A stretch of DNA of 32,000 bases from Puniceicoccales bacterium (GCA_031288595.1 JAITRB010000005.1:13373-45372), one strand, 5' to 3'. Positions 129-22,161 are shown, counted from the stretch's first letter. Notes: generated by a model not told the origin, from the sequence alone. Translations and numbers: made by a program.

Positions 129-227
129 CTGTGGCTGTCTTTGCAACAGGAAAAAATTTCCCCAGAAATTTTTCCTGTTGTGGCCCGCGCCGCGGGCGAT
201 TCCTTTGGAACCCAAAGACAGCCACAG
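129..227 (-). repeat. Cloverleaf palindromic element, copy A (GCTGTCTTTG-type closing stem, long arm first on + strand)
   Basis: Closing helix CTGTGGCTGTCTTTG (129-143) / CAAAGACAGCCACAG (213-227), 15 bp perfect. Internal hairpins at 144-180 (CAACAGGAAAAAATTT / AAATTTTTCCTGTTG), 183-197 (GCCCGC-GCC-GCGGGC) and 198-212 (GATTCC-TTT-GGAACC). Confidence 0.85.
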
Positions 228-290
228 AATCATCCCAAGAGCCTCCCAGGCCGAGCTCCAGAGCGAGCATCTTTGGGCTGAATCTAATCC

Positions 291-935
291 TCAACTCTCG
301 CTGTTCTGGAGCCGATAGAAGAGGATAAGTCGCTCTCTGAGTTTTTCGCCGTAGTGCCGGTCGGAGGCCCAGCGGCCAGCGAGGTCGTAAAGGGTACGAG
401 CAGAGCCCCTTGAAACAAAGTGAAATCGCGGGTCGACGCAGGGATTTTTTAGCGCCTCTCTAGACCCGTAGGCCTTGAGGTGCTGGATATGTGCCCGTAT
501 CCCCTCGCGGACGCTGCGGAAGCTCACCCCATGGGCGCCATCATCCGTCGCCCCCAGGCCGCAGAAATTGTTTTGACTCGCCCTGACCTGCCCTCTGAAG
601 CGGAGATAGCCTGTTTCCAGAGACATCTGGGCGAAGGCGAGGTCGTGATTGACCCCTTCGGCCCTGCTCTCTTCCAGATAGGCCCGAGCAATTTCCTGGA
701 TTTTCTCCTGGCTGAGCTGGGGGTTGTTCTGCCCCAATGCTCTTTCCATCGTCGTCAGCGTCAGTCTGCCCTGGCCCATGATCCGTGTGCTGATCCTCGT
801 CTGCCTATCCCTCTCTGGAAGAGGAAGTTTTGGCTCATTCCGGCTGCGCCGGTACTCCGTGACGAGGGCCGTGCAACCGCAGAGCAGGCCCAGGGCGAGA
901 AAGATTCCATGGCGCACCTTCATCGGGAATGTCAT
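291..935 (-). CDS. Lipoprotein with glucosaminidase (FlgJ/GH73-like, endo-beta-N-acetylglucosaminidase) domain
   Basis: 214-aa ORF with a lipobox-like N-terminus LALGLLCGC. The block ETGYLRF..NNFCGLGA..FRSVREGIRAHIQHLKAY resembles glucosaminidase-domain proteins. Its ATG overlaps the stop of the upstream gene (TCAT at 932-935 on + strand). Confidence 0.6.
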   Translation of the reverse strand: MTFPMKVRHGIFLALGLLCGCTALVTEYRRSRNEPKLPLPERDRQTRISTRIMGQGRLTLTTMERALGQNNPQLSQEKIQEIARAYLEESRAEGVNHDLAFAQMSLETGYLRFRGQVRASQNNFCGLGATDDGAHGVSFRSVREGIRAHIQHLKAYGSREALKNPCVDPRFHFVSRGSARTLYDLAGRWASDRHYGEKLRERLILFYRLQNSES

Positions 936-1876
936 AGCTCTAAAATCTCGAATACCCTGTCGATAACCTTGGGGACTGGCAAGGTCTTTAAATCCCCGCC
1001 AGCTGCCCGGATCCAGGCATTCGACGGACGGCTAGAGGGGTAGGGGCCAAAGCGCTTCGGATCCGTGGGGCCGTAGAGCCCAATGACGGGGGTTCCCATG
1101 CTGGCGGCGAGGTGGACGGGCCCACTGTCATTGGCCACGACGCAGCGCGCATGCCGTATAAGGGACAGAAGTTCTGCCAAATGGGTGCGCCCTCGCTCAT
1201 CCTCTAATCGAGGATGGGAAGCGAAAGCATTGTCTTTCCTGCAGCCAAGGATCTTTATGCTCCATCCGGCCGGTAGTCGCTCATCCTGGAGAAGACCCTG
1301 GGCGAGAAGGGGGAAAAGGGGCCATTCTTTCCCTCTGCCTCTAGCTTCCGGAAAAAGGGCAAGACTGGGGATCTCAGCTTCGGCTGCTGCTAGATGGGAC
1401 TGTCGCCAGTCGATGAGTCCTGTGACCGATGAGGAAAGGCCTAGGGTAGGCAGGAAATGTGCCAGAATGTCCATCGCATGGATCTCTTTGGCTAGGATTT
1501 GGGTCGGACCGATATGTTCTCGATAGGCTAAAAAGGCGCACTCCCGGGCATCGCTGCGACCGATTTTTCGCTTCGCTCGAGCCCCATAGGTCATGAGCGC
1601 CGTCCGCGCCAATCCCTGCATGTCCCAGACACTTTCGTATTCGGTGCGGCGAATCTCCCGAATTAGACGGAAAAAAGCCCCCAATCCTGCGTCTCGATGG
1701 AATTTATAGACGTGATCCGCTAGGCCCGAGTAGGCGATCAGGGGAGCTAAATCACTCCGAATAACCCAGTCAACGACGATCTCTGGTCTAGTCCAGCGCA
1801 AGGTCTGGATGATCGCCAAGGCGTGAATTACATCCCCTAGCGAAGACGGCTTGATGACCAGAAGCCGCTCCGGCAT
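932..1876 (-). CDS. Glycosyltransferase family 9 (LPS heptosyltransferase-like)
   Basis: 314 aa. N-terminal LLVIKPSSLGDVIHALAIIQTLR and C-terminal VANDSGPVHLAASMGTPVIGLYGPT blocks are typical of GT9 heptosyltransferases. Confidence 0.75.
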   Translation of the reverse strand: MPERLLVIKPSSLGDVIHALAIIQTLRWTRPEIVVDWVIRSDLAPLIAYSGLADHVYKFHRDAGLGAFFRLIREIRRTEYESVWDMQGLARTALMTYGARAKRKIGRSDARECAFLAYREHIGPTQILAKEIHAMDILAHFLPTLGLSSSVTGLIDWRQSHLAAAEAEIPSLALFPEARGRGKEWPLFPLLAQGLLQDERLPAGWSIKILGCRKDNAFASHPRLEDERGRTHLAELLSLIRHARCVVANDSGPVHLAASMGTPVIGLYGPTDPKRFGPYPSSRPSNAWIRAAGGDLKTLPVPKVIDRVFEILEL

Positions 1877-1891
1877 GAACGAGCCTTAGCC

Positions 1892-2629: not shown

Positions 2630-2766
2630 AGGTGCAAATGATAGACAAAGACGAACTGAAGTAAAGGATATAGGGCAACTGGAGGAGCTGTCAACTCCGT
2701 CCTGCGCCCAGAGGTGGCCGAAGGGTGAGGGGAATCTTCAGCGCCAGGTGGATTTGGCGGCTCCCT

Positions 2767-4146
2767 TTATCCGATCTGGGCGAGACCCGCGAAGAAGTGG
2801 CGGAAGACGCGGTAAGCCTTGGTCATCATCGCGAGAGAGAGGTTTTCATTAGGTGCGTGGAGCCGGTTCTGGGAGGTGAAAAATCCGATCATCAGCGGAT
2901 TCATGCCGGTCGTCTCCTGAATGGTCTGCATCAGGGGAATGCTGCCGCCCTCGCGGGTGAGCAGGAGCGGCGTTCCCATGACGCGCTGAGTGGCCTTTTG
3001 CAGGAGCTGGAAAGCCTGGGCCAGAAGGGAGGGCGAACTGCCTTGGGATGACAGGGTCTCTAAAGGGAAACGATAGGGCTTTCCAAGGGCGTCGGGAAAT
3101 ATCGCGAGGCGGGCCCAGGGCGGACAGAGGGCCCGCAGGCGCTCCTGAAGTGACTTGAGGATCTTTCCAGGCGATTGCTCCGGCACCAGCCGGCACGAGA
3201 TCTTTGCCCGGGCAGTGGAGGGAATGACAGTCTTGACGCCCGGGCCTTGCCAGCCGGAGCCGAACCCATTGATCTCCAGGGTCGGAAGGAATTCCTGCGC
3301 ATAGGCTGCGGAGCCCTCATGGGGTGCGAAGGCCTCGATGCCCGCTTCGCGGCGCAGGGTCTCTTCCGAGAGGGGAGCATTTTCCAGAGATGCCAACTCC
3401 TCAGCCGAAGGTTCTCGCAGCTCGCTATAGAAATCTTCCACCGTCACCTTCCCGTTCGCGTCGTGCAGCTGGGCACAGATTTCGGCAAGCACCTGGGCGG
3501 CGTTCGGCATCGGCCCACCCATGCCGGAATGGAGATCTGTGGTGGCCGTTGTGACTTCGAATTCCAAGGTCAGGAGGCCCCGAAGGCCGGTTGTCAGGCT
3601 CAGGTGCTGCTCGTCGCAGGTCCCGGTATCGGAGAGCAGGAATAGCTCGGAGCGGAGCGCATCGCCGTGTGCTTTTAAAAATTCCTCCATGTGCGGACTG
3701 CCGATTTCCTCCTCTCCCTCCAGTAAGAGGCGGATATTCCAGGGGAAATTGGGATTTTCCTGCAGCCCCTGGACTAGGGCATGCAAGAGGATCGCATGGG
3801 CCCCCTTGTTGTCGGCGATGCCACGGCCATAGAGGGCATCGTGGCGAAGAGTGGGCGCAAAGGGCGGCGATTCCCAGAGCTCCAGTGGTTCTGGTGGCTG
3901 GACATCGTAATGCCCGTAGAGGAGAAGCGAGGGAGCTGCCGACGAGATCAGGCGCGAGGCCAGGAGAATGGGATGTTTTGCGGTGGCTATGGTCTGAACT
4001 TCGAAATGCTCCCGCCTCAGAAATTCGGAGATACAGTCCCGGGTATCCTGCATGCCCCGTTCACAGGTCGGGTCGCTGGAGATGCTGGGATAGCTGGCGT
4101 AGCGCCGGAGGAACTGGATGATGGGCTCGATTTCCTGGCAATCCAT
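2767..4146 (-). CDS. M20-family metallopeptidase (dipeptidase/ArgE-DapE-CPG2 type)
   Basis: 459 aa with the motifs LLYGHYDVQP, GRGIADNKG and EGEEEIGS. Confidence 0.8.
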   Translation of the reverse strand: MDCQEIEPIIQFLRRYASYPSISSDPTCERGMQDTRDCISEFLRREHFEVQTIATAKHPILLASRLISSAAPSLLLYGHYDVQPPEPLELWESPPFAPTLRHDALYGRGIADNKGAHAILLHALVQGLQENPNFPWNIRLLLEGEEEIGSPHMEEFLKAHGDALRSELFLLSDTGTCDEQHLSLTTGLRGLLTLEFEVTTATTDLHSGMGGPMPNAAQVLAEICAQLHDANGKVTVEDFYSELREPSAEELASLENAPLSEETLRREAGIEAFAPHEGSAAYAQEFLPTLEINGFGSGWQGPGVKTVIPSTARAKISCRLVPEQSPGKILKSLQERLRALCPPWARLAIFPDALGKPYRFPLETLSSQGSSPSLLAQAFQLLQKATQRVMGTPLLLTREGGSIPLMQTIQETTGMNPLMIGFFTSQNRLHAPNENLSLAMMTKAYRVFRHFFAGLAQIG

Positions 4147-4260
4147 AAAAATATCTGTATGCGGAGCAGTTCTATAGGGTTCCAGAGGAGAGAAGGCAAT
4201 CCAGTTCTGGATGGCCGAGGGGATTTAGCCTGGGTTTGCTGGATGAGGGGGCTTAGGGAG

Positions 4261-4358
4261 GTCGGCTGGCTTTTGATGCCAAAGGCATCGGGCCCGCGGA
4301 GCGGGCCCACAGTGGAGGCCAGGACTCTGTCCTGGCCTCCACTGAAAAGCCAGCCGAC
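4261..4358 (+). repeat. Cloverleaf palindromic element, copy F (unique closing stem)
   Basis: Closing helix GTCGGCTGGCTTTT (4261-4274) / AAAAGCCAGCCGAC (4345-4358), 14 bp perfect. Hairpins GATGCC-AAA-GGCATC (4275-4289), GGGCCCGC-GGA-GCGGGCCC (4290-4308) and CAGTGGAGGCCAGGA-CTCTG-TCCTGGCCTCCACTG (4310-4344). Confidence 0.85.
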
Positions 4359-4424: not shown

Positions 4425-5261
4425 TCACAGAAAATACCTCTCCTGCCTTTCGGAGATCGGCCGGCCCACCCGTCGCATGACCGCCAGCATATCCTCCCAG
4501 ACGAGCCGCTTCGTGGCGCTGGTCTGGTTCCGCAGCAGGTAGGAGGGATGGAAGGTGACCATGAGAGGGATGTCTTGAAAGAAATACCACTGGCCACGGC
4601 AGAGGGTGATTCTCCGCTGGCTGTCGTATCCCAGAAGCCCGTTGACCGCAGTAGCCCCCAGTGCGACGATGACTTGGGGTTGGACGATCTCCAGCTGGGC
4701 CCGAAGATAGGGCAGGCAATGTTCCATCTCTTCCTGTGTAGGCGGGCGATTTCCCTGTTCCGCCGAAGTCTCGGGTCGCCAGTTCATGATGTTCGTGATG
4801 TAGACCTCCTCTCGCGTCAGACCCATGGCGAGGATAATTTTCGTCAGCAGCTGCCCCGCACGCCCGACGAAGGGAATGCCCTGGATTTCCTCATCTGCCC
4901 CGGGCGCTTCGCCGCAGAAGAGAATGTCCGCTTCCAGATTCCCAACGCCAAAAACCAGCTGTTTGCCCGGCCGCAGATGCCGCTGAAAATCTCTGGAATT
5001 CAGTACCTGTGCGCGAAGCCATTCCCACTGTTCCTGCTTAGGACCAGGGGGCAGAGATACGGCCATCGTGCCGTCGTCCAGTAGAGCTTGCTGCGAGGGC
5101 GGTGAGGGGATATGCTTGGAAGAGGACATGACTTGGGGAGTAGTTTTCAGAGTTTCCAGGAAGAATTGCCAGTTCTCGAGGCCGATGTAAATCTCTCGTT
5201 GGCCGGCCTCTCTCATCGACTGAAGTGTCCGGAGCAGAAGTGTGTGAGGTAAGTCGCCCAT
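4425..5261 (-). CDS. Uracil-DNA glycosylase, family 4, with an N-terminal extension of about 90 aa
   Basis: 278 aa with the motifs GEAPGADEE, FVGRAGQLL and HPSYLLRN. Confidence 0.8.
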   Translation of the reverse strand: MGDLPHTLLLRTLQSMREAGQREIYIGLENWQFFLETLKTTPQVMSSSKHIPSPPSQQALLDDGTMAVSLPPGPKQEQWEWLRAQVLNSRDFQRHLRPGKQLVFGVGNLEADILFCGEAPGADEEIQGIPFVGRAGQLLTKIILAMGLTREEVYITNIMNWRPETSAEQGNRPPTQEEMEHCLPYLRAQLEIVQPQVIVALGATAVNGLLGYDSQRRITLCRGQWYFFQDIPLMVTFHPSYLLRNQTSATKRLVWEDMLAVMRRVGRPISERQERYFL

Positions 5262-5348: not shown

Positions 5349-6158
5349 ATGAAACGGCGATTTTATCTTCTTCTGGCAGGAGGGATTCCCTGGCCATTGG
5401 GGCTCCTGGGGACTGCAGATGAACCGACATCGGTGGCTGCGGTTCAGGTTCAAGAGAACACAACATCTGCAGGAGCTCTCATAGGCATGCCGAGTACTTC
5501 TGCGGTGGCGCGCACTCCGCCGGTGGCGGAACCAAAGCTGGACGAGGCAGCGGGACTGCAGGATGAAACCATCATCGAGACCTGGATGAGGGTTTTGATC
5601 CAAAATGCGCTGCGCTGTCTGCGGGAGAATCCCTGGAAGACCCTTTCTCGCCTGAAGTCGGCTCGGGGCCTGCTGCTGCTGGGGCCGGAAAAATTGGGAA
5701 GTCTGCTGGGGGTGCACGCCGGGGCGGCCCTCGGGTTTTACCGGAGAAGCGATGGACACTGGGGCCTTCCGGCCATCTACCAGGTCGAATCGAAATCGCC
5801 CATCAAATGGGGTGAGGTGAGCTCGCTGATTCTGCCCATCGAAGACGAGAAGACCCAGGTAAGCCTGCTGTTGCCCCAATGGCCCTGCGCGGTGGCGGCG
5901 AAAGCGCCGCCAAACTTCGGCCCCTCTTCGGAACTTGCCCAGGAGCTGGAGAAGGAGGAGAGTCCTTCGCTCTGGATTTTTCCGGAATCGAGGGATTTTC
6001 CCAAAAAGCTGGAGCTGATCTTCCACTTCAACCGCGAGATCAATGAGGAATTTTATGGGAAGGAAGGAATCCGGGCCGTGGATATTTTTTTTGACGATAC
6101 CGCTGAGCCAGCGCACCTGAGAGAATGGTGGAATTTTTTGAAAAAGGTCTTAAACTAG
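5349..6158 (+). CDS. Hypothetical secreted protein (weak SYLF/Ysc84-like pattern)
   Basis: The ORF track starts at TTG 5307. The first ATG (5349) gives a signal-like MKRRFYLLLAGGIPWPLGLLG. The central ARGLLLLGPEKLGS..GFYRRSDGHWGLPAIYQVES loosely resembles SYLF domains. The antisense ORF 5328-6116 is Arg-rich and looks non-coding. Confidence 0.5.
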   Translation: MKRRFYLLLAGGIPWPLGLLGTADEPTSVAAVQVQENTTSAGALIGMPSTSAVARTPPVAEPKLDEAAGLQDETIIETWMRVLIQNALRCLRENPWKTLSRLKSARGLLLLGPEKLGSLLGVHAGAALGFYRRSDGHWGLPAIYQVESKSPIKWGEVSSLILPIEDEKTQVSLLLPQWPCAVAAKAPPNFGPSSELAQELEKEESPSLWIFPESRDFPKKLELIFHFNREINEEFYGKEGIRAVDIFFDDTAEPAHLREWWNFLKKVLN

Positions 6159-6769
6159 AGGCCGTGAAGGGGGAATTCAGGCGGGCCCAGGGTTTTTTGC
6201 TCATCGAGGTCGTCGTGGCCCTGGCGGTTTTTGCCGTTTCAGCCGCCATCATCGTCCAGAGCTTCGCCAATGGGCTTGTGGCTAAGTACCAGCGGGAGAA
6301 CTCACCCGACGCGGGGGACCGGTTGCTGTTTCTGGTGGATCAGGTCTTTGAGCAGATCAGAGGGGGAAGGTCCAGCAAAGAGGACTTGGCCAACGGTGGG
6401 GAGATGCATTTCCCCGATGGGAGCTGTTGGCGCTGGAAGATGCTGTGCCAGCCAACGAATGTGCTGAATCTCTTCCAGATTTCCCTGGAGTTGATTCTCC
6501 CGAAGGGACAGGAGGAGTACCAGTTCTACCGTTGGGTGCCTGAGTGGAAGGATTGGGACCAGGAGACAAAGGCCAAGGAGTATTTTCAGAAAAATAAGGG
6601 AAAGGGCTTGGGGAAACCCAAGAAGTCTCGGAAGGGAAAAGCTCAAGTCTTGGGGTTTGTCTCTTCGCTGTCTTTGGATTCCGGAGGAATCGACCCGCGC
6701 AGCGGGCCCCAGGATAAAAACAAAAGGGAGTTTTGTTTTTATCCTGCAAAGACAGCGAAGTACTGCTGA
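6125..6769 (+). CDS. Prepilin-type N-terminal domain protein, GspI-like minor pseudopilin
   Basis: QGFLLIEVVVALAVFAVSAAIIV is a prepilin cleavage/methylation motif plus hydrophobic helix. An alternative GTG start at 6164 would give a 9-aa leader and remove the 34-nt overlap with the upstream gene. The last 35 or so codons and the stop lie inside repeat copy B. Confidence 0.6.
   Translation: MVEFFEKGLKLEAVKGEFRRAQGFLLIEVVVALAVFAVSAAIIVQSFANGLVAKYQRENSPDAGDRLLFLVDQVFEQIRGGRSSKEDLANGGEMHFPDGSCWRWKMLCQPTNVLNLFQISLELILPKGQEEYQFYRWVPEWKDWDQETKAKEYFQKNKGKGLGKPKKSRKGKAQVLGFVSSLSLDSGGIDPRSGPQDKNKREFCFYPAKTAKYC
6663..6760 (+). repeat. Cloverleaf palindromic element, copy B (GCTGTCTTTG-type)
   Basis: Closing helix CTTCGCTGTCTTTG (6663-6676) / CAAAGACAGCGAAG (6747-6760), 14 bp perfect. 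Hairpins GATTCC-GGA-GGAATC (6677-6691), GACCCGC-GCA-GCGGGCC (6692-6708) and CAGGATAAAAACAAAA-GGGAG-TTTTGTTTTTATCCTG (6710-6746, 16 bp perfect). Confidence 0.9.
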
Positions 6770-6936: not shown

Positions 6937-7032
6937 CCGCTGTCTTTGGATTCCAAAGGAATCGGTCCGCATAGCGGTCCCCAGGGGTAAAGGGAAGGCT
7001 TTGCCTTCCATTTACTCCTGCAAAGACAGCGG
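6937..7032 (+). repeat. Cloverleaf palindromic element, copy C (GCTGTCTTTG-type)
   Basis: Closing helix CCGCTGTCTTTG (6937-6948) / CAAAGACAGCGG (7021-7032). Hairpins GATTCC-AAA-GGAATC, GGTCCGC-ATA-GCGGTCC (one mismatch) and CAGGGGTAAAGGGAAGG-CTTTG-CCTTCCATTTACTCCTG (one G-T pair, one mismatch). Confidence 0.85.
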
Positions 7033-7058: not shown

Positions 7059-8162
7059 ATGCTGCGAGTGGGGATTGTTGGATTGCCCAATGTGGGGAAG
7101 AGCACGCTCTTCAATGCCCTGACGCGGACGTACAAGGCCGCAGCGGAGAATTATCCTTTCTGCACCATTGAGCCGAACGTGGGCATGGTCGAGGTGCCGG
7201 ACGGGCGCCTCGAACCTCTTAGGAAAATGGCCAAGACGGAGAAGGTGGTACCGGCCGTCATCGAGTTTGTCGATATCGCCGGTCTGGTAGCCGGTGCATC
7301 CCGAGGTGAGGGGCTCGGTAACCAATTCCTGGCCCACATCCGCGAGGTGGATGCCATCCTGCAGATCGTCCGCTGTTTTGAGGATGAGAGCATCGTCCAC
7401 ACGATGGGAGTGGTGGATCCGCTGCGGGACATCGGGATCATCCGTACAGAACTGCTGCTGGCTGATCTGCAATCAGCGGAGGGCCAGCTGGAGAAATGGC
7501 GCAAGAGGGCCCGCAGCGGCGAGAAGGAGGCGGTGGAGCAGGTGGGATTGCTGGAAAAAATCTGCGCCCAGCTGGACCAGGGGAAAGCCGTAGGGACCTC
7601 GGCGCTATCCGCTGAGGAACGGGCCCAGGCAGAAGTTTTCCATCTCCTGAGCTCGAAGCCGATGCTCCTCGCCTGCAACGTGGCCGAAGGGGATTTAAGT
7701 GATCCCTCGGCCAATCCTCATGTGGCCCAGGTGGGACGGCATCTCCGCGAGGAGGACGAGGGAGAGCTCTGTGTCGTGAGCGCCCGTATCGAGCAGGAGC
7801 TTACCGCCCTGTCTCCGGAGGACGCCCGGACCTATCTGGAGGCAATCGGTGTGGGGGATAGCGGCGTGGCCCAGCTGATCCAAAAGAGCTATGCCCTGTT
7901 AGGCCTAGCCTCCTATTTCACGGCCGGCGAGAAAGAGGTGCATGCCTGGACTTTTAGATGGGGGATGAAGGCACCAGCCTGTGCGGGTCTCATCCACGGC
8001 GATTTCGAGCGGGGATTCATCCGGGCGGAGGTGATCGGTTACGAGGACCTGAGAAGGGCCGGCTCGGTGGCCCGTGCTCGAGAACTAGGCACCTATCGCC
8101 TAGAGGGCAAGGATTACGAAGTGCGGGATGGCGATATCCTGGTCTTCCGCTTCAACGTATGA
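7059..8162 (+). CDS. ychF: Ribosome-binding ATPase YchF
   Basis: 367 aa. P-loop GLPNVGKSTLFNALT, then NYPFCTIEPNVG and DIAGLVAGASRGEGLGNQFL, plus a C-terminal YchF/TGS block HAWTFRWGMKAPACAGLIHGDFERGFIRAEV. Confidence 0.95.
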   Translation: MLRVGIVGLPNVGKSTLFNALTRTYKAAAENYPFCTIEPNVGMVEVPDGRLEPLRKMAKTEKVVPAVIEFVDIAGLVAGASRGEGLGNQFLAHIREVDAILQIVRCFEDESIVHTMGVVDPLRDIGIIRTELLLADLQSAEGQLEKWRKRARSGEKEAVEQVGLLEKICAQLDQGKAVGTSALSAEERAQAEVFHLLSSKPMLLACNVAEGDLSDPSANPHVAQVGRHLREEDEGELCVVSARIEQELTALSPEDARTYLEAIGVGDSGVAQLIQKSYALLGLASYFTAGEKEVHAWTFRWGMKAPACAGLIHGDFERGFIRAEVIGYEDLRRAGSVARARELGTYRLEGKDYEVRDGDILVFRFNV

Positions 8163-9340
8163 GGGCATTGCGGCTTCGGGACTTCCCTCTGGCTCTGGAT
8201 GGGTCCCGTCCCGACTTCCTGATCATCGCGGGAGAGGCCTCTGGAGATGAGCATGCGGCCCGTATGGTAGAGGGTTTATTCTGCGAGAATCCCCAAGTGT
8301 CGGTCTATGCCTTCGGCGGGAAAAATCTCCAGGCGGCCGGTGCCCATCTGCTCTATGATCTGACGCAGCACGCGGTCATAGGCCTGTGTGAGGTTTTGAG
8401 GAATCTCGGCCTGTTCCGGCAATTGCTCGCGGCGGTCATCGACTGGGTGGCCATCCACAGGCCGCGTACGGTCTGCCTGGTGGATTACCCGGGCTTCAAC
8501 CTGCGATTGGCCAAACGCCTTTTCCAAAGGGGCTTGAGCCGGAAGGGTGGCGGCGAGGTCGCGCTCTACTACTACATCAGCCCGCAGATCTGGGCCTGGA
8601 AGGCAAAGCGCCGCTTTGGGATGGCCCGCTGGCTCGACCATCTGGGGCTTATCTTTCCCTTTGAAAAGGATTTTTTCGCAGACATCCCGCTGCGGGTCTC
8701 CTTTGTCGGCCATCCCTTGTTGTGCGCCAAAGCTTCTTTCCTATCGTACGCTCCCCAGGGGGTACTGCTCCTGCTACCCGGAAGCCGCGTGGCGACCGTC
8801 CGCCGGCTCTTCCCGCTGATGCTCGAAACTTTTCGGCGACTGCAGCCCCAATTCCCACACCTCTTAGCGGCGGTGCCGTATGCCGACGAGGGGGTGTTGG
8901 AAGAATTGCGGGGGATATTTGCAGGGTACGAAGACCTTCGGTCCTACCTGCGATTTGTTTCCGTTTCAGGCCCAGATCTTCCCTGTGCGGCGAGCCTGAT
9001 GGTCTCCGGCACCATGTCCCTCAGCTGCGCTCTGGCCGGTATCCCTGGGGTCATCACCCATAAAATCCATCCCCTGAGCTACTTCCTGGCCAGGCACTGG
9101 GTCAAGATTCCCTACATCGGCATGGCCAATATTCTGCTGAAGCGGAAGTCGCTGCCGGAGTATATCCAGAGCGAGGCCGAGCCTTCTGCCCTGTGCGAGG
9201 AAGTCTCGCAGTGCCTGCGGGATCCCAGGAGAATCGAACAGGCGCAACAGGATGCCGAAGCCCTGAGGGCCATCCTTGGAGCACAGCCGGATCTGAAGGT
9301 GGCCGAGTGGCTCCTCACTTCGCTGGAGGAGAAATTTTAG
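8159..9340 (+). CDS. lpxB: Lipid-A-disaccharide synthase
   Basis: The ORF is open from 7958, but ATG 8159 (MRALRL..) overlaps the ychF stop (ATGA at 8159-8162). The LpxB N-terminal motif IIAGEASGDEHAARM follows, and the length (393 aa) fits LpxB. Confidence 0.85.
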   Translation: MRALRLRDFPLALDGSRPDFLIIAGEASGDEHAARMVEGLFCENPQVSVYAFGGKNLQAAGAHLLYDLTQHAVIGLCEVLRNLGLFRQLLAAVIDWVAIHRPRTVCLVDYPGFNLRLAKRLFQRGLSRKGGGEVALYYYISPQIWAWKAKRRFGMARWLDHLGLIFPFEKDFFADIPLRVSFVGHPLLCAKASFLSYAPQGVLLLLPGSRVATVRRLFPLMLETFRRLQPQFPHLLAAVPYADEGVLEELRGIFAGYEDLRSYLRFVSVSGPDLPCAASLMVSGTMSLSCALAGIPGVITHKIHPLSYFLARHWVKIPYIGMANILLKRKSLPEYIQSEAEPSALCEEVSQCLRDPRRIEQAQQDAEALRAILGAQPDLKVAEWLLTSLEEKF

Positions 9341-9410: not shown

Positions 9411-9509
9411 GGCGCTGTCTTTGGATTCCGGAGGAATCAGCCCGCGCAGCGGGCACCAGAGCGGCAAATGAAAAGGCCTTTTCATCTGCCGCTCTGCAAA
9501 GACAGCGCC
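9411..9509 (+). repeat. Cloverleaf palindromic element, copy D (GCTGTCTTTG-type)
   Basis: Closing helix GGCGCTGTCTTTG (9411-9423) / CAAAGACAGCGCC (9497-9509). Hairpins GATTCC-GGA-GGAATC, AGCCCGC-GCA-GCGGGCA, and a long arm CAGAGCGGCAAATGAAAAGG/CCTTTTCATCTGCCGCTCTG (9457-9496, one mismatch). Confidence 0.9.
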
Positions 9510-10570
9510 GGAGCCGATGGCCCCCCTTCTTCCCGCACGATTTCCCGGAGTTTGGGCAGCCAGCGGCGATGGGGCCCTGAGAGGGGGATCTGTTTCAGTT
9601 CCGCAGCCGAGAACCAGCGGCCATCGGAGGGTATCGGGGTCCTCTCATCGACTTTTAAAATGTGAAACTTTTCCGTGAACCGTGTGAGGCCGATGCTTCG
9701 CCTGCCCGTAAAGATGGGCGGGAGGAGTTTTGGGGAAAACGGAATTGGAATTTCCGGGAATTCCCAGATGAGGGCCGTAGGCTTGCTCGGAATGCCCATG
9801 GGCGATAAGAGGAGCCGGTCCCGGTGGAAAAAGAGGCCGCGGGCCTTGCTGGCTTTTCTGTAGCTGGGGATCTTGAATCGCGGGATGCTTTCGGCCGTCG
9901 CGTGGAGATGGGCCCGACAATGAGAACGTAGGGGGCAGAGCAGGCACTGTGGGTGCTGTGGCAGACAGATCAGCGCGCCGAGCTCCATGAGCCCCTCATT
10001 GTAGAGGGCATGGCGTGGGGAATCGAGGCAGCGCTCGGCCAAGGGACGTAGGTAACTCAGGGCCTGCGCCTGGCCGTCGAAGGCACGTTGGATATTTCCG
10101 AAGCGCAGCAGGACGCGGAGAATATTTCCATCCATGACGGCCACTGGTGTATCTTGAGAAAAGCTGGCGATGGCCGCCGCCGTGTAGCGGCCGATGCCGG
10201 GGAGTTTTTCCCAATCGCCGACCGTTTGGGGCAGATGCCCTTGCCGTCGAATGATTTGGGCGATTTCGTGGAGTGCCGAGGCACGCCGATAGTAGCCCAG
10301 TCCTTCCCACAGGCCTAGAACCTCCACCTCATCAGCTTGGGCTAGGCTTTCCAGGTCAGGGAAGCGCCGGATCCATCGCTCGAAATAAGGCACGACCGTT
10401 TTGACCTGGGTCTGCTGGAGCATCATCTCCGAAATGAGTGTGTGGTAGACGGAGCGTTTCTGGCGCCAGGGCAGAGAGCGAGCCTGGTGGGCATAGAAAT
10501 CGATCACCGCTTGCCTGAGAAAGAGGATTGCCTTTCGGGATAGGTGGAGTGACGGCATGGGATGAGCCAT
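9482..10570 (-). CDS. mutY: A/G-specific adenine DNA glycosylase
   Basis: 362 aa with LISEMMLQQTQV, GLGYYRRA and VMDGNILRV, and an Fe-S cluster pattern C-x6-C-x2-C-x5-C in CLPQHPQCLLCPLRSHC. The last 8 or so codons and the stop lie inside repeat copy D. Confidence 0.9.
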   Translation of the reverse strand: MAHPMPSLHLSRKAILFLRQAVIDFYAHQARSLPWRQKRSVYHTLISEMMLQQTQVKTVVPYFERWIRRFPDLESLAQADEVEVLGLWEGLGYYRRASALHEIAQIIRRQGHLPQTVGDWEKLPGIGRYTAAAIASFSQDTPVAVMDGNILRVLLRFGNIQRAFDGQAQALSYLRPLAERCLDSPRHALYNEGLMELGALICLPQHPQCLLCPLRSHCRAHLHATAESIPRFKIPSYRKASKARGLFFHRDRLLLSPMGIPSKPTALIWEFPEIPIPFSPKLLPPIFTGRRSIGLTRFTEKFHILKVDERTPIPSDGRWFSAAELKQIPLSGPHRRWLPKLREIVREEGGPSAPALSLQSGR

Positions 10571-10630
10571 GCCGCGAAAAACTTTAGGTTTGGCAATACG
10601 GAGGAAATTTTTATAAAGGGAGGCTGGCTT

Positions 10631-11122: not shown

Positions 11123-11129
11123 CAAAAAG

Positions 11130-11804
11130 ATGTCGGAATTCCCCTATGCCTTGGGCTCAGCTTCGACGGGGTCGGTGCAGGAGACGATTGCCTCTTCCAG
11201 TGAGCCGAAAGGACTGGAAAATCCGGTCAGTTCAGTGGCGGACTTGCTGCGATCCCATGGCGAGCTGGTGGGCTCTCCGCTGGTGGAAGTGGCGGAAGCG
11301 AGAATGGATTTGAGTGTCGTTGAGGAGAGTGAAGAGGAATCGACCCGCAGCATCGGCCAGATGGAGAGGGAGGGGATTTTTCTGGATACCGACGGTGATG
11401 GGATTCCGGACTACCGCGACCTGAGTGGCAGCGAGTCGCGCTTCGCGCAGGAGGCGGATAAGGGGATGAGCAATGCGATGGAAATGCTGAGGGCGATGAT
11501 GGGGAATGTTCTCGGGTTTAATTTCCGACCCGATATCCTGAAGTCGGAGGAGGCCGTGAGTGAAATTTCAAAGGCACAGGGCGGAAACCTGCAGGCGACA
11601 CTGGCGGCTACCCATAGAAATCGCGTCACAATGGACTTCGATGTCGGAGTCTCGTCCTGGCGTCGGATGGCCCAGAAGCGGAGGGACCTCTTCCGCCGGA
11701 CGAGGGAACTTAGGGGGCTTAGCCATATGGAGGGTTTTTATAAAAATATGCCCCAAGTGGCGGATCGCTCGCGGATAGATGCTGATGTGTCGAGGCCGCG
11801 CTGA
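11130..11804 (+). CDS. Hypothetical protein, possible secreted effector; contains one DxDxDG calcium-binding-like motif
   Basis: ATG 11130 lies 7 nt after the chaperone-like stop. 224 aa with no signal peptide. Ser/Thr-rich N-terminus MSEFPYALGSASTGSVQETIASSSE, a DTDGDGIPDYRD motif, and no family recognised. Confidence 0.5.
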   Translation: MSEFPYALGSASTGSVQETIASSSEPKGLENPVSSVADLLRSHGELVGSPLVEVAEARMDLSVVEESEEESTRSIGQMEREGIFLDTDGDGIPDYRDLSGSESRFAQEADKGMSNAMEMLRAMMGNVLGFNFRPDILKSEEAVSEISKAQGGNLQATLAATHRNRVTMDFDVGVSSWRRMAQKRRDLFRRTRELRGLSHMEGFYKNMPQVADRSRIDADVSRPR

Positions 11805-11837: not shown

Positions 11838-11937
11838 GGGCGATGGCCCGTCGGAGAACGGCCTTTGGCCGTTCTCCGACTCCGGCTGTTTTCATGCAAT
11901 GAAAACAGCCATCTGGCTTTGCCAGGGGCCATCGCCC
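11838..11937 (-). repeat. Cloverleaf palindromic element, copy H (GCGATGGCCC-type sub-family)
   Basis: Closing helix GGGCGATGGCCC (11838-11849) / GGGCCATCGCCC (11926-11937), 12 bp perfect. Hairpins GTCGGAGAACGGC-CTTTG-GCCGTTCTCCGAC (11850-11880), GGCTGTTTTCAT-GCA-ATGAAAACAGCC (11884-11910) and CTGGC-TTT-GCCAG (11913-11925). Confidence 0.85.
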
Positions 11938-12075: not shown

Positions 12076-12644
12076 GTGGAGATCGATCGGGAGAAAATTG
12101 AGAGGAGCGTACGGCTCCTGCTGGCAGGAATCGGCGAGAATCCGAAACGCGAGGGCCTGTTCGGAACACCGGGACGAATCGCTGCGTTTTTCGAGGAGTT
12201 CTTGGGCCTAAGGGATACATTTGAAAGTGTCCGGAAGCTGTTTCAGGTCGAGTCAGATGGCCGCTATGTGCTCTTGGCATTCCCTTCTATTCGCTCTGTG
12301 AACATCACTTCCTGCCCTTTTACGGCAAGGCATCGATGGCCTATGAAGTGTCCCAGAAGCGCGTTCTAGGCCTGAGAAAATTCATGCGCTTAAGACTCTG
12401 TACCGGCCACCTACAGCTGCAGGAGCACCTGGCGGAGGAACTGGCGAATGCCCTTGTGAAGGCGACGGACGGCGGGAGTGTCCTGATACTCCTGGAGGCC
12501 GAGCATCTCTGCACCCGCATGCGGTGGCTTAGGTCGGAAGGAGCCTGCTACGTAACCCGAGCCCTGAGGGGGAATTTCGCCGGCGACACCGCCCTGCTCT
12601 CGGATATGCTGGCGATGATCCGTCTGGGAAGGACAGGACTCTGA
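12076..12644 (+). pseudogene. folE: GTP cyclohydrolase I (FolE) interrupted by a frameshift
   Basis: Frame 1 (GTG 12076 to stop 12369) encodes the FolE N-terminus (LLLAGIGENPKREGLFGTPGRIA). Frame 2, open from 12225, encodes GIPFYSLCEHHFLPFYGKA...LQLQEHL...EAEHLCTRMR up to stop 12644. By homology the frames join near 12270-12280. Confidence 0.75.
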
Positions 12645-12652
12645 GCAAATCG

Positions 12653-15336: not shown

Positions 15337-16314
15337 ATGCCAAACGTATTGGTGACCGGAGGTTGTGGCTATATCGGCTCGGGTCTTGTTCATCGGCTGA
15401 AACGCCTGAGCTATGGTGTGTCGGTGCTGGATTCTTTGGTTCATGGGGATAGGGGAGCGATTCCGGAAGACGTCCCGCTCTATGTCGGGGATTACGGCCA
15501 CCTCGCTCTGATGGAACAGATTCTATCGGAGCAGGTGGTGGACTGCGTTCTGCACTGCGGGGCCTGGACGGACGTGCGCGAATCGCTGGCCTGGCCGATG
15601 ATGTACTTCGTCAACAACCTGGCCGGAACGATGTTTTTGCTGCAGGCCATGGTTCACAAGCACGTGAAGCAAATCATCTACCTATCGACGGCGTCGGTCT
15701 ATGGAGAGGTGGAGAGTGGTTTAGCGGATGAATCGCAGGTCCCGAATCCCATCAATCCCGACGGGATGACGCATCTGGGCGTCGAGCAGCTTTTGGCAGC
15801 TCTGGCGGAGTCCGAGCGCTGGAGCGTCGTCATCCTCCGTCCTTCCAATGTCGTAGGACGGGCCTCGTCGGGGGAAAGTATTTCTCTGAAGAAAGATAAC
15901 CTGTTCTCCATTCTGGGTGAGGTCGTGAACGGCGAACGGGAATCCTGCGAGGTTTTCGGTAACGACCGACCCACGTTCGACGGCACGGCGGTTCGGGATT
16001 ACGTCCATGTGGAGGATGTGATCCATGCCTTCATCTCCGCCCTGTCGTCCATGCCGGCGATGGGGACGAGGGGAAGCTATAACCTCGCCTCCGGTCGGGG
16101 ATATTCGGTCCGAGAGGTCATTCGGAGCTTCGAAAGGATTTTCGGCAAGAGGATTCCCGTTGTGGAGTCAGACGCTCATCCTGGGGAAATCGCCCGTTCC
16201 GTTCTGGACCCGAGGAAGGCACAGCGGGAACTTCACTGGGAGCGGCGGTTCGATGATCTGAAAACTCTGGTACGGGATACCTGTCCGGGGAGAGAGGGAG
16301 AGCTTTTCGGCTGA
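15337..16314 (+). CDS. UDP-glucose 4-epimerase-like extended SDR (GalE homologue with atypical active site)
   Basis: 325 aa. Rossmann motif VLVTGGCGYIGSG, then STASVYGE and the GalE-specific block FGNDRPTFDGTAVRDYVHVEDV. Where GalE has PYGxSK, this protein reads PDGMTH. Confidence 0.8.
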   Translation: MPNVLVTGGCGYIGSGLVHRLKRLSYGVSVLDSLVHGDRGAIPEDVPLYVGDYGHLALMEQILSEQVVDCVLHCGAWTDVRESLAWPMMYFVNNLAGTMFLLQAMVHKHVKQIIYLSTASVYGEVESGLADESQVPNPINPDGMTHLGVEQLLAALAESERWSVVILRPSNVVGRASSGESISLKKDNLFSILGEVVNGERESCEVFGNDRPTFDGTAVRDYVHVEDVIHAFISALSSMPAMGTRGSYNLASGRGYSVREVIRSFERIFGKRIPVVESDAHPGEIARSVLDPRKAQRELHWERRFDDLKTLVRDTCPGREGELFG

Positions 16315-16377: not shown

Positions 16378-16485
16378 GGCGCGATGGCCCGTCGCTAAAC
16401 GGACAAAAGCCGTTTAGCGACAGGGCTCTCCTCCGCGCGGAGCGCGGAGGAGAGCCCCTTTGCTCCGCAAAGGGGCCCTCGCGCC
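16378..16485 (-). repeat. Cloverleaf palindromic element, copy I (GCGATGGCCC-type sub-family)
   Basis: Closing helix GGCGCGATGGCC (16378-16389) / GGCCCTCGCGCC (16474-16485), 12 bp with one mismatch. Hairpins GTCGCTAAACGG-ACAAAAG-CCGTTTAGCGAC (16391-16421), GGGCTCTCCTCCGCGC-GGA-GCGCGGAGGAGAGCCC (16423-16457, 16 bp perfect) and CTTTGC-TCC-GCAAAG (16458-16472). Confidence 0.85.
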
Positions 16486-16518: not shown

Positions 16519-18720
<2,202 letters not shown>

Positions 18721-18836
18721 GGCCAGTATAACTAGCCGAAAATACCCTCAAGACGAGCCTTTATCCGGCGGCGGGGTTCTCCTGCAATCCGTCCGATGTT
18801 TTCGCTTGTTTTAAAAGCTGGAAAGCGCTGTCTTGG

Positions 18837-18926
18837 GCTCGCTGTCTTTGCAGGGATGAAAAGTCTCCTTTTCATCCCTGATGCTCGCTTTGCGAGCGAG
18901 CCCTTCGGGCTCCAAAGACAGCGAGC
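18837..18926 (-). repeat. Cloverleaf palindromic element, copy E (GCTGTCTTTG-type)
   Basis: Closing helix GCTCGCTGTCTTTG (18837-18850) / CAAAGACAGCGAGC (18913-18926), 14 bp perfect. Hairpins CAGGGATGAAAAG-TCTC-CTTTTCATCCCTG (18851-18880), GCTCGC-TTT-GCGAGC (18883-18897) and GAGCCC-TTC-GGGCTC (18898-18912). Confidence 0.9.
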
Positions 18927-18981
18927 ACCCTTCCCTGTAGCCCCCTTCCCTCTCCAGTACCGATTCCTCGGTCCTCCTCCA

Positions 18982-19362
18982 TTATGGGTTCTCTCCTTCG
19001 CTGTTTGGGGAACGTCTCACTAAAATTGCCCGCATGGGGTCGTGATTCAGCATTTTCAGAGCGGTCTGGATGTTTTCCTCCGTGCAATCCACCAGAACTT
19101 TCACCTCGGAGTCGTTTTTCTCTCGGTCGATGCTGCAGAGGATGCCGATGACGCGATGCCCCCGCAGGTCTCCCAGGAAGACATCGATGCCCTCGCCATC
19201 CTGGGATCGCGTCCCATTGATAAAGCCGTAGTCCATCGGATAGATGAGTTGGGGAAAGCGCGGATGCGAAGATCCTCTGGGCCGGTCGATACTCAGGCCG
19301 TTCTTCTCGATCAACGCCTCCAGGGCTTGGAAAAATTCGTCCGGATTCTGCGAAGTCTCCAT
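18982..19362 (-). CDS. Small inorganic-pyrophosphatase-like protein
   Basis: 126 aa. The block YPMDYGFINGTRSQDGEGIDVFL resembles the family I pyrophosphatase core (YP.nYGfip.T...DGDP.Dv). The protein is shorter than a canonical PPase. Confidence 0.55.
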   Translation of the reverse strand: METSQNPDEFFQALEALIEKNGLSIDRPRGSSHPRFPQLIYPMDYGFINGTRSQDGEGIDVFLGDLRGHRVIGILCSIDREKNDSEVKVLVDCTEENIQTALKMLNHDPMRAILVRRSPNSEGENP

Positions 19363-19691
19363 GGCCTTTCCGTGTAGCCCGTGTATTTCTAAAGTTCCAC
19401 CACCTGCAAGCCTCTAGATAGAAGCGCTTCGCTTTTTCGACAAGCCGAAAGAAAGAGCTTCGAAAAGGGTAGAGCCATGGCTTGCTTGTGATTTCCCTTC
19501 AGGGAGTCCGCAGGGACAAGGTGAAGTTCGCAGAGCTAAGAGGAATCCATTCCCACATAAGCGGGCTGTTGAGCGCGGAGGGAATGCGAAATGTCTCTCT
19601 ATTTTTCACACAGCATGCCCTCCTCCTGAGCCGGTGGATTGCTTGGGGAGGAGTGATTTGGAACCTTGAAATACCCTGGAATCTCTGCTCA

Positions 19692-20426: not shown

Positions 20427-20429
20427 GAG

Positions 20430-21308
20430 ATGAAGGAGAGAATCGGAAGTTTTTGTGTCCTGTGGCTGGCGGTTCTGGGGATACTTGCGCTAGGAGGTGT
20501 GAGCGGTGGGGTGCTACTCCTCATCCTGGCCTCTCTGCTGACCCAGTACGAGCTCTGCCAGCTCTGCCGCAAGGCCGGTTACGAGCCTTACCTCTGGCAC
20601 TGTCTGGGCTATGGATTGCTGATGCTGCTCCTGGCCTATTTCCCCCCGGCTCCGATGTGCGGAGTGGAGGCGGCGATGATGGTTTTCGTCTGTGCCTTGA
20701 TCGAGACGACCTTCCATGCCTTTTCCAAAAAGGAACCGCGGGCCATCATCGGGAGTCTGGTGTCGACGGTCTGCAACCTGGTCTACCTGCCCCTGATGTT
20801 CAGCCTTCCCATCGCGATGTTGCGGGACTGGTCCTCGAAGGGAGAGGATAGGATGGCCCTCGCCTGTCTCCTGTGGATCATCGCCGTGGCCAAGTTCAGC
20901 GATGTCAGCGGGCTCTGCGTCGGCTCCCTCTGTGGCGGACAGAAACTGGCTCCACAACTGAGTCCTGCCAAGACGCGCCGGGGCCTGATCGGTGCCGTAA
21001 TCCTCGCCCCTCTGCTCGTCGGCCTAGGCAGCCGATTGCTCTTCACTTCCTTTTTCCCAAAAGATTTCTCGCCCCTCCGGGCCCTGCTGCTGGCGATTTT
21101 AATCGCGCTGATCGCCGCCTTTTCTGACCTCGTGGAATCCACGGTTAAGCGCCTGGCTCAGGTGAAGGATTCGGGGAAACTCATCCCGGGAATCGGGGGG
21201 ATTTTCGACCTGACCGACAGCCTGATTTTGGCTCTTCCGGTGGGAGTCCTGTACTTCCACTACTGGGAAAAAATATCCCCCGTCCTGAGGGCATGGGGAC
21301 TTTTCTGA
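20430..21308 (+). CDS. cdsA: Phosphatidate cytidylyltransferase (CDP-diglyceride synthase)
   Basis: 292 aa and polytopic, directly downstream of uppS. It has SPAKTRRGLIGAV and the C-terminal signature STVKRLAQVKDSGKLIPGIGGIFDLTDS. That signature carries I for the usual H and L for the usual R/K. Confidence 0.8.
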   Translation: MKERIGSFCVLWLAVLGILALGGVSGGVLLLILASLLTQYELCQLCRKAGYEPYLWHCLGYGLLMLLLAYFPPAPMCGVEAAMMVFVCALIETTFHAFSKKEPRAIIGSLVSTVCNLVYLPLMFSLPIAMLRDWSSKGEDRMALACLLWIIAVAKFSDVSGLCVGSLCGGQKLAPQLSPAKTRRGLIGAVILAPLLVGLGSRLLFTSFFPKDFSPLRALLLAILIALIAAFSDLVESTVKRLAQVKDSGKLIPGIGGIFDLTDSLILALPVGVLYFHYWEKISPVLRAWGLF

Positions 21309-21323
21309 GAGGGGATTCGTAAC

Positions 21324-22013
21324 GTGGCAGCCGGCATCCTCTACGTCGTCGCGACGCCCATCGGTCATCTTGGGGACTTCTCGCTGCGGGCACTGGAAGT
21401 TCTGAAGAACTGCGAGGTGCTGGCCTGTGAGGATTCACGCGTCAGCTCCCGTCTATTGACCCGTTACAAGCTTTCCCGTCCGCTGATTCTCTACAATGCC
21501 GCCCATGAAATCCGCCAGACGGCCGTGTTGCTGAAGAAATTAAAGCTGGGGAAAAATGTGGCCCTGATCAGCGATGCAGGGACACCTAGCCTGAGCGACC
21601 CTGGCTTTCGCCTGGTGCGGGCCTGCCGAAAGGATGGCATTGCCGTCCTGCCCGTTCCAGGGGCAAGCGCTGCGCTGGCGGCCCTCTCGGTCAGCGGCCT
21701 TCCTACAGAATCCTTCCTCTTCCTTGGCTTCCTTCCTCCCAAATCCTCGGCGAGGCAAGAGATTTTTCAGCGCTATGAGGATTGCCCTCATACCCTCATC
21801 TTCTATGAGGCCTGCCATCGCATCGAGAAGTTTCTCCAGGAGGCCCGAGAGGTTTTGGGCGATGCCCGTTGGGCCTGCGTGGCCCGGGAGATGACGAAAT
21901 TGCACGAGACTTATATCACCCGAACTTTGGGGGAAATTTGCGAGGAGAAGCTCTGCTTACCAGCCAAGGGCGAGTTCACCGTTCTCATCGCCAAGTCTCG
22001 CTTCACGCTCTAG
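21324..22013 (+). CDS. rsmI: 16S rRNA (cytidine1402-2'-O)-methyltransferase
   Basis: GTG start. The N-terminal motif LYVVATPIGHLGDFSLRALEVLKNCEVLACEDSR is typical of RsmI. 229 aa. Confidence 0.85.
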   Translation: MAAGILYVVATPIGHLGDFSLRALEVLKNCEVLACEDSRVSSRLLTRYKLSRPLILYNAAHEIRQTAVLLKKLKLGKNVALISDAGTPSLSDPGFRLVRACRKDGIAVLPVPGASAALAALSVSGLPTESFLFLGFLPPKSSARQEIFQRYEDCPHTLIFYEACHRIEKFLQEAREVLGDARWACVAREMTKLHETYITRTLGEICEEKLCLPAKGEFTVLIAKSRFTL

Positions 22014-22065
22014 GAGACTGAGGGCTTAGGGTTACTGGCAAAGGGGTGAATGAAGGTTGCTCTGG

Positions 22066-22161
22066 GTGTGCCGCCTTGGCTAGTGCCGGCCTCGGCCGAG
22101 GCCGGCGCTAGCGGCGGCCCGCTGCGCGGGCCGGAGCCCGGAGGGCTCCAAGGCGGCACAC
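22066..22161 (-). repeat. Cloverleaf palindromic element, copy G (unique closing stem)
   Basis: Closing helix GTGTGCCGCCTTG (22066-22078) / CAAGGCGGCACAC (22149-22161). Long arm GCTAGTGCCGGCCTCG..CGAGGCCGGCGCTAGC (22079-22112, one G-T pair). Hairpins CGGCCCGC-TGC-GCGGGCCG (22115-22133) and GAGCCC-GGA-GGGCTC (22134-22148). Confidence 0.85.

Follow-up and report, generated by a model that had tools for sequence, protein, structure and literature searches.

The REP unit is a single imperfect palindrome of 20–40 bp with a GTAG or CGTC tetranucleotide at one end (PMC3733652), and insertion sequences have been found inserted into REP sequences (PMC1525189; ISPpu9 in PMC12288879). In proteobacteria, REP, BIME and REPIN sequences consist of one hairpin, or of an inverted pair of one hairpin, and are moved by RAYT, a Y1 HUH transposase. 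The subject here is a palindromic repeat that occurs nine times in a stretch of 32,000 nt from a Puniceicoccales bacterium (GCA_031288595.1, JAITRB010000005.1:13373–45372), referred to as the window, of which the repeats make up about 3%. In each copy a closing helix encloses three hairpins, giving a four-way junction. The presence of nine such copies was confirmed, and the family does not belong to REP, the classical MITEs, terminators, integron attC sites or any Rfam family. On balance, these are probably members of a lineage-specific, non-autonomous, DNA-level palindromic repeat family that is functionally closest to REP/BIME/REPIN and to MITEs.

Nine four-way-junction copies in the window

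An earlier note, made from the sequence alone, had listed nine segments in which paired ends enclose three hairpins and had reported both orientations. Minimum free energy (MFE) folds of both strands of all nine segments, computed with RNAfold, agreed: each consisted of the closing helix and exactly three hairpins, with ΔG of −55 to −89 kcal/mol, and four copies lie on the + strand and five on the − strand (each copy being assigned to the strand that reads the short hairpin first). When DNA parameters were used for copies 3, 6 and 7, the identical four-way junction was obtained, with z-scores of −11.4 to −12.1 relative to dinucleotide shuffles, and none of 200 shuffles was equally stable. The closing helix is 12–15 bp in the nine copies, with one mismatch in copy 7. 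Hairpin 1 has 4–6 bp and a 3-nt loop, hairpin 2 has 5–8 bp except in copies 6 and 7 (Table 1), and the long arm has 13–17 bp.

The copies were also recovered independently of their sequence. A scan for an inverted seed 70–130 nt apart, followed by an MFE fold showing one closing helix and three simple hairpins, missed one of the nine with a 9-mer seed and none with a 7-mer seed. The remaining matches were only low-energy ones inside open reading frames (ORFs), and shuffled windows yielded 0–2 weak matches. The core of the closing stem, GCTGTCTTTG, was found 12 times in the window at up to one mismatch compared with 2.3 expected, and none of 100 shuffles reached 12. A covariance model, the check that had been suggested along with the nine segments, was built from 48 main-family copies that included window copies 1, 3, 4, 5 and 8. 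It identified exactly nine sites in the window, all full-length, with the next best at E=0.59, and the copies absent from model building (2, 6, 7 and 9) still scored (Table 1).

The anatomy of the element was determined from 119 copies, each read in the direction that places the short hairpin ahead of the other parts. The unit is 80–125 nt long with four helices. In the main family, the order is an outer extension, the core GCTGTCTTTG, hairpin 1 (GAYYCC-nnn-GGRRTC), hairpin 2 (G(G)CCCGC-nnn-GCGGG(C)C), a linker of 1–3 nt, the long arm, the core CAAAGACAGC and the complement of the extension. The long arm (CAG...CTG, 13–20 bp) is purine-rich on its 5′ side and A/T-rich at the tip, which often reads ...ATGAAAA-loop-TTTTCAT.... 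The core is conserved and 10 bp long. The outer extension is variable (1–7 bp, mostly 4–5 bp) yet complementary between the ends, and it is common within a subfamily, with CTGCG and the same hairpins found at five unrelated loci. It therefore travels with the element and is not target sequence.

Other subfamilies keep the order of the parts and have closing stems GCCGCCTT(T/G)G, GCTGGCTTT, GCTGCCTTTG or GCGATGGCCC. A long hairpin 2 is characteristic of the GCGATGGCCC subfamily, which includes copies 6 and 7, and in a GGGAC type, which is shorter, all three hairpins are short. The earlier note had described four closing stems as unrelated to the core; those of copies 6 and 7 (GCGATGGCCC) do clearly differ, but those of copies 2 (GCTGGCTTTT) and 9 (GCCGCCTTGG) are variants of the core with 2–3 mismatches and represent recurrent subfamilies. 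Stem positions show 3–5 Watson–Crick pair types each, and the RNAalifold consensus of 48 copies was a four-way junction in which 25 of 39 pairs had double-sided changes and almost none had one-sided changes.

The triloops of hairpins 1 and 2 are also constrained. About 76% are G-N-A or T-N-C, compared with about 12% expected, and these two classes are evenly split (40:41 in hairpin 1 and 36:36 in hairpin 2). The common loops come in pairs of exact reverse complements (GCA/TGC, GGA/TCC, GAA/TTC). As the GNA and TNC loops are all closed by C-G, one strand always bears C-GNA-G. The d(C-GNA-G) motif forms an unusually stable DNA mini-hairpin. Within a copy, the loop orientations of the two hairpins agreed in 37 cases and disagreed in 18, which may reflect shared descent.

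Stretches like GGGTGGGTGGGGTGGGTGGGG, or like its C-rich complement, occur in or beside hairpin 2 of some copies (L022:2140–2175, L050:2612–2734, L050:6851–6971, L056:2228–2347 and L056:4872–4996, the prefix L denoting loci from related genomes) and are possible G-quadruplex or i-motif tracts. A second family of four-way-junction repeats, of about 70–80 nt, was seen at L022:3332–3428, L050:4709–4787, L056:5097–5173 and L013:3067–3145. It has the closing stem GGCCCCGGGAC/GTCCCGGGGCC and hairpins GCTCGC-TTC-GCGAGC, AAGCGGC-TTTA-GCCGCTT and AGCCCTC-TTC-GAGGGCT, and has no copy in the window.

Table 1. Copies of the repeat in the window, an adjoining terminus duplicate, and nested insertions at related loci
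Feature	Position	Strand	Type	Fold and model score	Context
Copy 1	129–227	−	Main family, core GCTGTCTTTG/CAAAGACAGC	Folds; 87.3 bits	Convergent; tRNA 3′ end (+) and stop of glucosaminidase-like gene 291–935 (−)
Copy 2	4261–4358	+	GCTGGCTTT subfamily	Folds; 77 bits (outside model-building set)	67 nt downstream of stop of UDG-like gene 4425–5261 (−); 115 nt upstream of start of M20 peptidase gene 2767–4146 (−)
Copy 3	6663–6760	+	Main family	Folds; 89.5 bits	
Copy 4	6937–7032	+	Main family	Folds; 77.2 bits	27 nt upstream of ychF start (7059)
Copy 5	9411–9509	+	Main family	Folds; 91.5 bits; orthologue L044:2935–3033	Convergent; lpxB (7958–9340, +) and HhH-GPD glycosylase gene (9482–10570, −)
Copy 6	11838–11937	−	GCGATGGCCC subfamily, hairpin 2 of 12 bp	Folds; 27.9 bits, E 7.9e-5	34 nt past stop of ORF 11052–11804 (+), upstream of folE
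Copy 7	16378–16485	−	GCGATGGCCC subfamily, hairpin 2 of 16 bp	Folds; 32 bits; orthologue L042:5463–5573	Convergent; epimerase gene (15337–16314, +) and glgB (16519–18720, −)
Terminus duplicate	18827–18836	+	GCTGTCTTGG, one-sided, degenerate		Abuts copy 8 directly
Copy 8	18837–18926	−	Main family	Folds; 92.6 bits	56 nt downstream of stop of pyrophosphatase-like gene (18982–19362, −); 117 nt upstream of glgB start
Copy 9	22066–22161	−	GCCGCCTTGG subfamily	Folds; 43.9 bits	Convergent; TP_methylase gene (21324–22013, +) and ABC ATPase gene (22338–23186, −)
Nested insertions	L006:133, L050:2612, L022:2140		In long-arm apical loop		
Nested insertions	L019:3853, L042:1–81		In hairpin 1 loop		

The placement of all nine copies between genes, as first reported, holds for most of them, with two departures. 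Copy 3 lies wholly within the 3′ end of a pilin-like ORF (6125–6769, weak N_methyl motif), of which it forms the last 35 codons; the orthologue in L036 has an earlier stop and lacks the element. Copy 5 covers the last nine codons of the HhH-GPD glycosylase gene 9482–10570. A similar pilin-like gene at L050:5700–6470 is flanked by two copies. Among other features of the window, the 3′ part of a tRNA gene is present at its edge (positions 1–49; Rfam tRNA, model positions 29–71, 26.3 bits) with CCA encoded, and copy 1 starts 80 nt downstream of it. The folE gene for GTP cyclohydrolase I (12076–12644), which follows copy 6, is split into two overlapping ORFs (12076–12369 and 12336–12644) matching the N- and C-terminal parts of PF01227, the frameshift representing a pseudogene or a sequencing error. 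It heads a folate operon with folP, folB and a folK-folA fusion. The ORF at 10562–11122, which adjoins the glycosylase gene, matches the CesT/Tir-chaperone family (PF05932, E 2.7e-12) and resembles type III secretion chaperones.

The range of the family appears to be narrow. An exact-pattern scan using a 20-base pattern against one genome per species (185,579 species) retrieved about 47 stretches from three Puniceicoccales metagenome-assembled genomes (MAGs), namely Pcl387_bin38, Pcl387_bin136 and Ct408_bin121. A further 13 or so stretches from unrelated organisms, a chance-level number without the junction fold, are not members. The nucleotide identity of the window is about 86% to Pcl387_bin38 in syntenic stretches and about 68% to Pcl387_bin136. 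With the covariance model (R1), about 125 sites were found in 311 kb of the three MAGs, a biased sample in that the loci were fetched for containing a copy. Two contigs end inside a copy (L042:1–81 and L026:5317–5406); the MAG contigs are mostly 3–22 kb. In metagenome contigs there were 87 pattern matches, and the three or four that scored with the model were simple long hairpins and not members, while the one pattern match in viral contigs was by chance. BLAST of copy 5 against plasmid and phage collections returned nothing, and the literature searched contained no account of bacterial repeats with a four-way or cloverleaf form. The absence of a match to any described family is supported within the libraries searched.

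Strand symmetry and sequence change

At symmetric stem positions, 3423 Watson–Crick pairs were counted, together with 73 G-T and 71 A-C, and G-U made up about 1% of the MFE pairs on either strand. That G-U is as rare as A-C counts against selection on one RNA strand, which would tolerate G-U and not A-C. In co-directional contexts, the orientation of the copies relative to the transcribed strand was 17:16, and the loops on the mRNA strand were 17 GNA and 25 TNC. Relative to the GC-skew strand, used as a proxy for the replication strand, no bias was seen in the orientation of the copies (43:48) and the GNA-loop strand was distributed 63:50 (p=0.26).

On either strand, the 5′ flank is rich in G and T, and in the 3′ flank A (33%) and C (32%) predominate over T (13%), a composition opposite to that of a terminator. 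A scan of the window for the canonical terminator consensus revealed no excess (20 found, 22 expected), and no significant structure was detected at other gene ends. An intrinsic terminator was rejected on the grounds of this consensus scan, the reversed flank composition and the lack of a T/U run after the element, and a function as one-strand RNA was rejected because there is no bias of orientation or loops with respect to transcription and no excess of G-U. Rfam 15 gave no match to the elements at gathering thresholds. At E values up to 5, the matches were at chance level only (sucA at 30.3 bits on copy 7, where the gathering threshold is 40, and mir-4659 on copy 1). ARAGORN called no tRNA. 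The bidirectional terminator, mRNA stabiliser or structured RNA that the earlier note had entertained find no support in these results, which together favour a constraint or process that is symmetric on DNA and argue against a terminator or one-strand RNA role. A protein-bound DNA cruciform, another role suggested in that note, is possible.

Comparison of close pairs of copies revealed how the stems change. Double-sided changes that keep the pair (52) outnumbered one-sided changes (35). Copy 8 is 96% identical to its orthologue L042:2904–2991, with differences only in the loops, and the flanks of the two are full of indels. Between copy 5 and L044:2935, AAA has become CCC with the matching change in the opposite arm, and between copy 7 and L042:5463, GTCGC/GCGAC has become GTAGC/GCTAC. 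The long arm of the CTGCG subfamily has a hypervariable central block of 5 bp, with covariation between its two sides. Replication template switching in inverted repeats homogenises the arms, gives multi-base compensatory changes and inverts the spacer (PMC8794818), and arm homogenisation and spacer inversion by this route are documented also in PMC8604942. Template switching accounts for perfect pairing in the stems, for double changes that occur in clusters and for loop flip/flop without RNA selection, and selection for foldability may have been a further contributor to the perfect stems.

Spread of the copies and competing explanations

Several findings indicate that copies have been gained at new sites. 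Identical termini and hairpins of one subfamily recur at unrelated loci. L042, from a relative with 86% identity, has an extra main-family copy past the orthologue of gene 21324–22013, where the site in the window is empty, and an extra GCCGCCTTT copy past the orthologue of gene 15337–16314, at a site that in the window holds no copy, although it may hold a decayed remnant. In five cases, the removal of one copy in silico restored a complete host element (nested insertions, Table 1). The loops amount to about 12% of the element, so that five loop insertions out of five would be unlikely by chance (roughly 1e-4 to 1e-5). The insertion at L042:1–81 interrupts the orthologue of window copy 9, and copy 9 itself is intact. 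Insertion into pre-existing host hairpins was considered as a general rule and rejected, as beyond the nested cases the flanks are not complementary (p=0.14).

No target-site duplication was detected, and the longest direct repeats abutting 116 copies matched a shuffled-partner control. Degenerate duplicates of a terminus, present on one side only, adjoin some of the copies, among them copy 8. At L037:171–183, a solo left terminus, GCCGCTGTCTTTG, shares its outer extension with the complete copy that follows after 64 nt (L037:235–336). Either a partial duplication took place or a tandem copy was deleted, leaving this terminus behind. Some sites are old: one is filled in each of the three MAGs, and another in two of them. 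Upstream of ychF, where the window has copy 4, the site is also filled in Pcl387_bin38 (L054:2644–2738) and Pcl387_bin136 (L036:4669–4756). The long arms differ, and the copy in bin38 resembles window copy 3, not copy 4, which points to exchange between copies or to repeated insertion at one site.

The proposal of the earlier note that the element is REP- or MITE-like and mobilised in trans is favoured by the shared subfamilies, the differences in occupancy and the nesting. It is not borne out by the features that define REP, as the main family has no GTAG/CGTC tag and the unit is not a single hairpin of 20–40 bp, nor by the target-site duplication of a classical MITE, which was not found. In 343 kb, no RAYT homologue turned up. 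Either single strand of the compound palindrome can adopt the four-way junction, and a branched cruciform could be extruded from the duplex. In the mechanism proposed for a non-autonomous DNA-level repeat, copies would be mobilised in trans by an enzyme encoded elsewhere, which would recognise the folded structure (single-stranded or extruded) rather than a fixed sequence and insert copies either at the tips of hairpins, where the DNA is single-stranded, or elsewhere between genes. Replication template switching within the hairpins would largely account for stems that are almost perfect, for double-sided changes in clusters and for the inversion of loops, and the need to stay foldable would reinforce this effect. 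Effects on neighbouring genes, such as altered C-termini, would be by-products. The distribution among gene contexts is the pattern expected of insertions that are tolerated where they are least harmful, and REPs are distributed likewise; no long ORF reads into 100 of the 119 copies.

A number of observations weigh against this account. A search for RAYT in the 343 kb comprising the window and 47 loci, using the E. coli RayT with tblastn and phmmer, found nothing better than E=1.3, a result of limited reach as a single query was used. The genes between similar pairs of copies are housekeeping genes (pheS and a pilin-like gene), with no transposase, and no parent insertion sequence or long element with matching termini was found in the 343 kb. 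There is no clean pair of empty and filled sites with exact junctions, as the intergenic flanks are too diverged, and the window counterpart of L042:5675 may hold a decayed remnant, in which case the difference could be a deletion and not an insertion. Orthologous copies are conserved at least as well as the neighbouring genes and some sites are filled in three species; this could mean selection at the level of the host and not selfish persistence. In the larger sample, where gene calls are heuristic, copies are present in 20 of 33 convergent, 15 of 34 divergent and 25 of 77 co-directional regions. The convergent enrichment over co-directional regions is REP-like, yet a 3′-end function predicts it too.

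In the same 343 kb, 63 pairs of cores lie 50–140 nt apart and six cores are unpaired, being variant copies, truncated copies or solo ends, none of which bounds an ORF. Two Phage_integrase proteins encoded near copies have the ordinary domain make-up of the Xer type (XerC/XerD-like), and two is about the number expected by chance for the sampled fraction of a small MAG.

It is possible, although rather unlikely, that the copies are substrates of a new mobilisation or maintenance system that reads the DNA four-way junction by its shape and not by its sequence. Shape recognition would explain the common architecture of at least four or five unrelated terminal sequences, the covariation in every helix and the landing of new copies at hairpin tips, and the C-GNA-G triloops and their flip/flop would then be part of recognition or of replication (hairpin-primed copying) and not just a by-product of template switching. 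A site that serves the host, in which a cruciform or hairpins would bind HU, IHF, gyrase or a junction-binding protein and organise supercoiling or the nucleoid, appears unlikely. Strand-symmetric constraints and a triloop fixed as C-GNA-G on one strand or the other fit a role for the duplex or cruciform, and the A/T-rich apex of the long arm would favour extrusion. The occupancy of some sites in three species with a conserved frame, and the identity of copy 8 with its orthologue amid indel-rich flanks, point the same way, and such a role has been proposed for E. coli BIMEs and for REP325, with HU as the partner (PMC4550694). However, no candidate binding protein has emerged and the spacing of the copies is irregular (0.2–5 kb), and the final 10 kb of the window (22162–32000) are free of them. 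The disruption of copies by nesting, the overlap with gene ends and the different occupancy in genomes that are 86% identical are typical of selfish spread. A structural role is compatible with a mobile origin, and the two are not fully exclusive.

An RNA-level cis element in 3′ untranslated regions, which would block 3′ exonucleases, terminate transcription bidirectionally or act as a processing site, is very unlikely. Of the window copies, judged against Pfam-checked genes, four are in convergent contexts (1, 5, 7 and 9), five are co-directional and none is divergent, three of the co-directional copies sit 34–67 nt past a stop codon, and the window has neither an enrichment of canonical terminators nor structure at its other gene ends, all of which speak for such an element. 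Set against this, nearly half of the divergent regions in the larger sample carry a copy, the element lacks a U-tract and is T-rich in the 5′ flank rather than the 3′ flank, and the even orientation, the mixed loop classes on the mRNA strand, the rarity of G-U and the absence of an Rfam family all count against it. The least probable of the alternatives, which we consider highly improbable, is a classical MITE of the DDE type, which would stem from an insertion sequence sharing its terminal inverted repeats and would move by cut-and-paste as duplex DNA. The terminal inverted repeats of 12–15 bp, the size of 80–125 bp and the many intergenic copies would suit it. Opposed to it are the abutting direct repeats, which have the control distribution and include no target-site duplication, the lack of a parent element in the 343 kb, and the occurrence of several unrelated terminal sequences with one internal architecture. 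The outermost 1–7 bp vary while remaining complementary, whereas ends bound by a transposase are normally the most conserved part.

Among interspersed palindromes of bacteria, the family takes the repertoire beyond single and paired hairpins to a unit of four helices that is closed and branched and whose shape is kept across several sequence families. With hundreds of paralogues and orthologues in four genomes, it offers a clean natural data set on the upkeep of perfect stems by template switching or selection, as well as a lead to a structure-specific DNA enzyme. On the practical side, the repeats may add to the fragmentation of assemblies, two MAG contigs ending in a copy, and they create false extensions of ORFs, so annotators should mask them.

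Comparison with described systems

The repeats share with REP, BIME and REPIN sequences the short GC-rich hairpin palindromes in hundreds of copies, the extragenic location with enrichment between convergent genes, the occurrence in both orientations and the absence of a target-site duplication. Lineage-specific sequence classes and composite units of several hairpins are also common to both, and hairpin 2 (GGCCCGC-nnn-GCGGGCC) alone resembles a REP. The high copy number, extragenic location and dual orientation of REP are all found here. The unit itself differs, with 80–125 nt and four helices forming a closed junction that combines a terminal inverted repeat and three different hairpins. The termini of the main family are GCTGTCTTTG and its arms begin CAG...CTG, without a GTAG/CGTC tag; starts resembling CGTC (GTCG/CGTC) are seen only on the long arms of the GCGATGGCCC subfamily. 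The near-perfect, strongly covarying stems and the GNA/TNC flip/flop are further differences.

Bacterial MITEs (Correia, ERIC, RUP, Nezha and others) are likewise non-autonomous elements of 80–150 bp whose terminal inverted repeats form a long stem by pairing, and they are intergenic and at times fused to gene ends. The closing helix of 12–15 bp corresponds to such terminal inverted repeats. In contrast to MITEs, the element has no target-site duplication, the outer ends of its termini are variable, and its interior consists of three palindromes conserved in structure where that of a MITE is arbitrary sequence.

Integron attC sites also combine conserved inverted repeats on the outside with an interior in which sequence and length vary while pairing is retained, and they are recognised as folded single-stranded DNA, by structure and not by sequence. 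They are, however, single imperfect hairpins with extrahelical bases that lie in one orientation in cassette arrays beside an integrase gene, whereas the stems of the elements described here are perfect, and the elements lie in either orientation, dispersed among housekeeping genes. Membership of attC was rejected on account of the two orientations and the perfect stems, and only tyrosine recombinases of the Xer type were seen.

IS1397 inserts in the loop of a palindromic unit. Insertion into palindromic repeats by IS1397, ISKpn1 and ISPpu9 parallels the five nested insertions at hairpin tips, but those insertion sequences are autonomous and carry transposase genes, whereas the inserted element here is itself a small palindromic repeat. 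The inverted terminal repeats of parvoviruses such as the adeno-associated virus share with the element an outer stem around small palindromes, a branched hairpin, and flip and flop forms at equal frequency. The repeats of the adeno-associated virus form a three-way (T-shaped) junction, lie at the ends of a linear viral genome and are origins of replication, and the likeness is one of form only.

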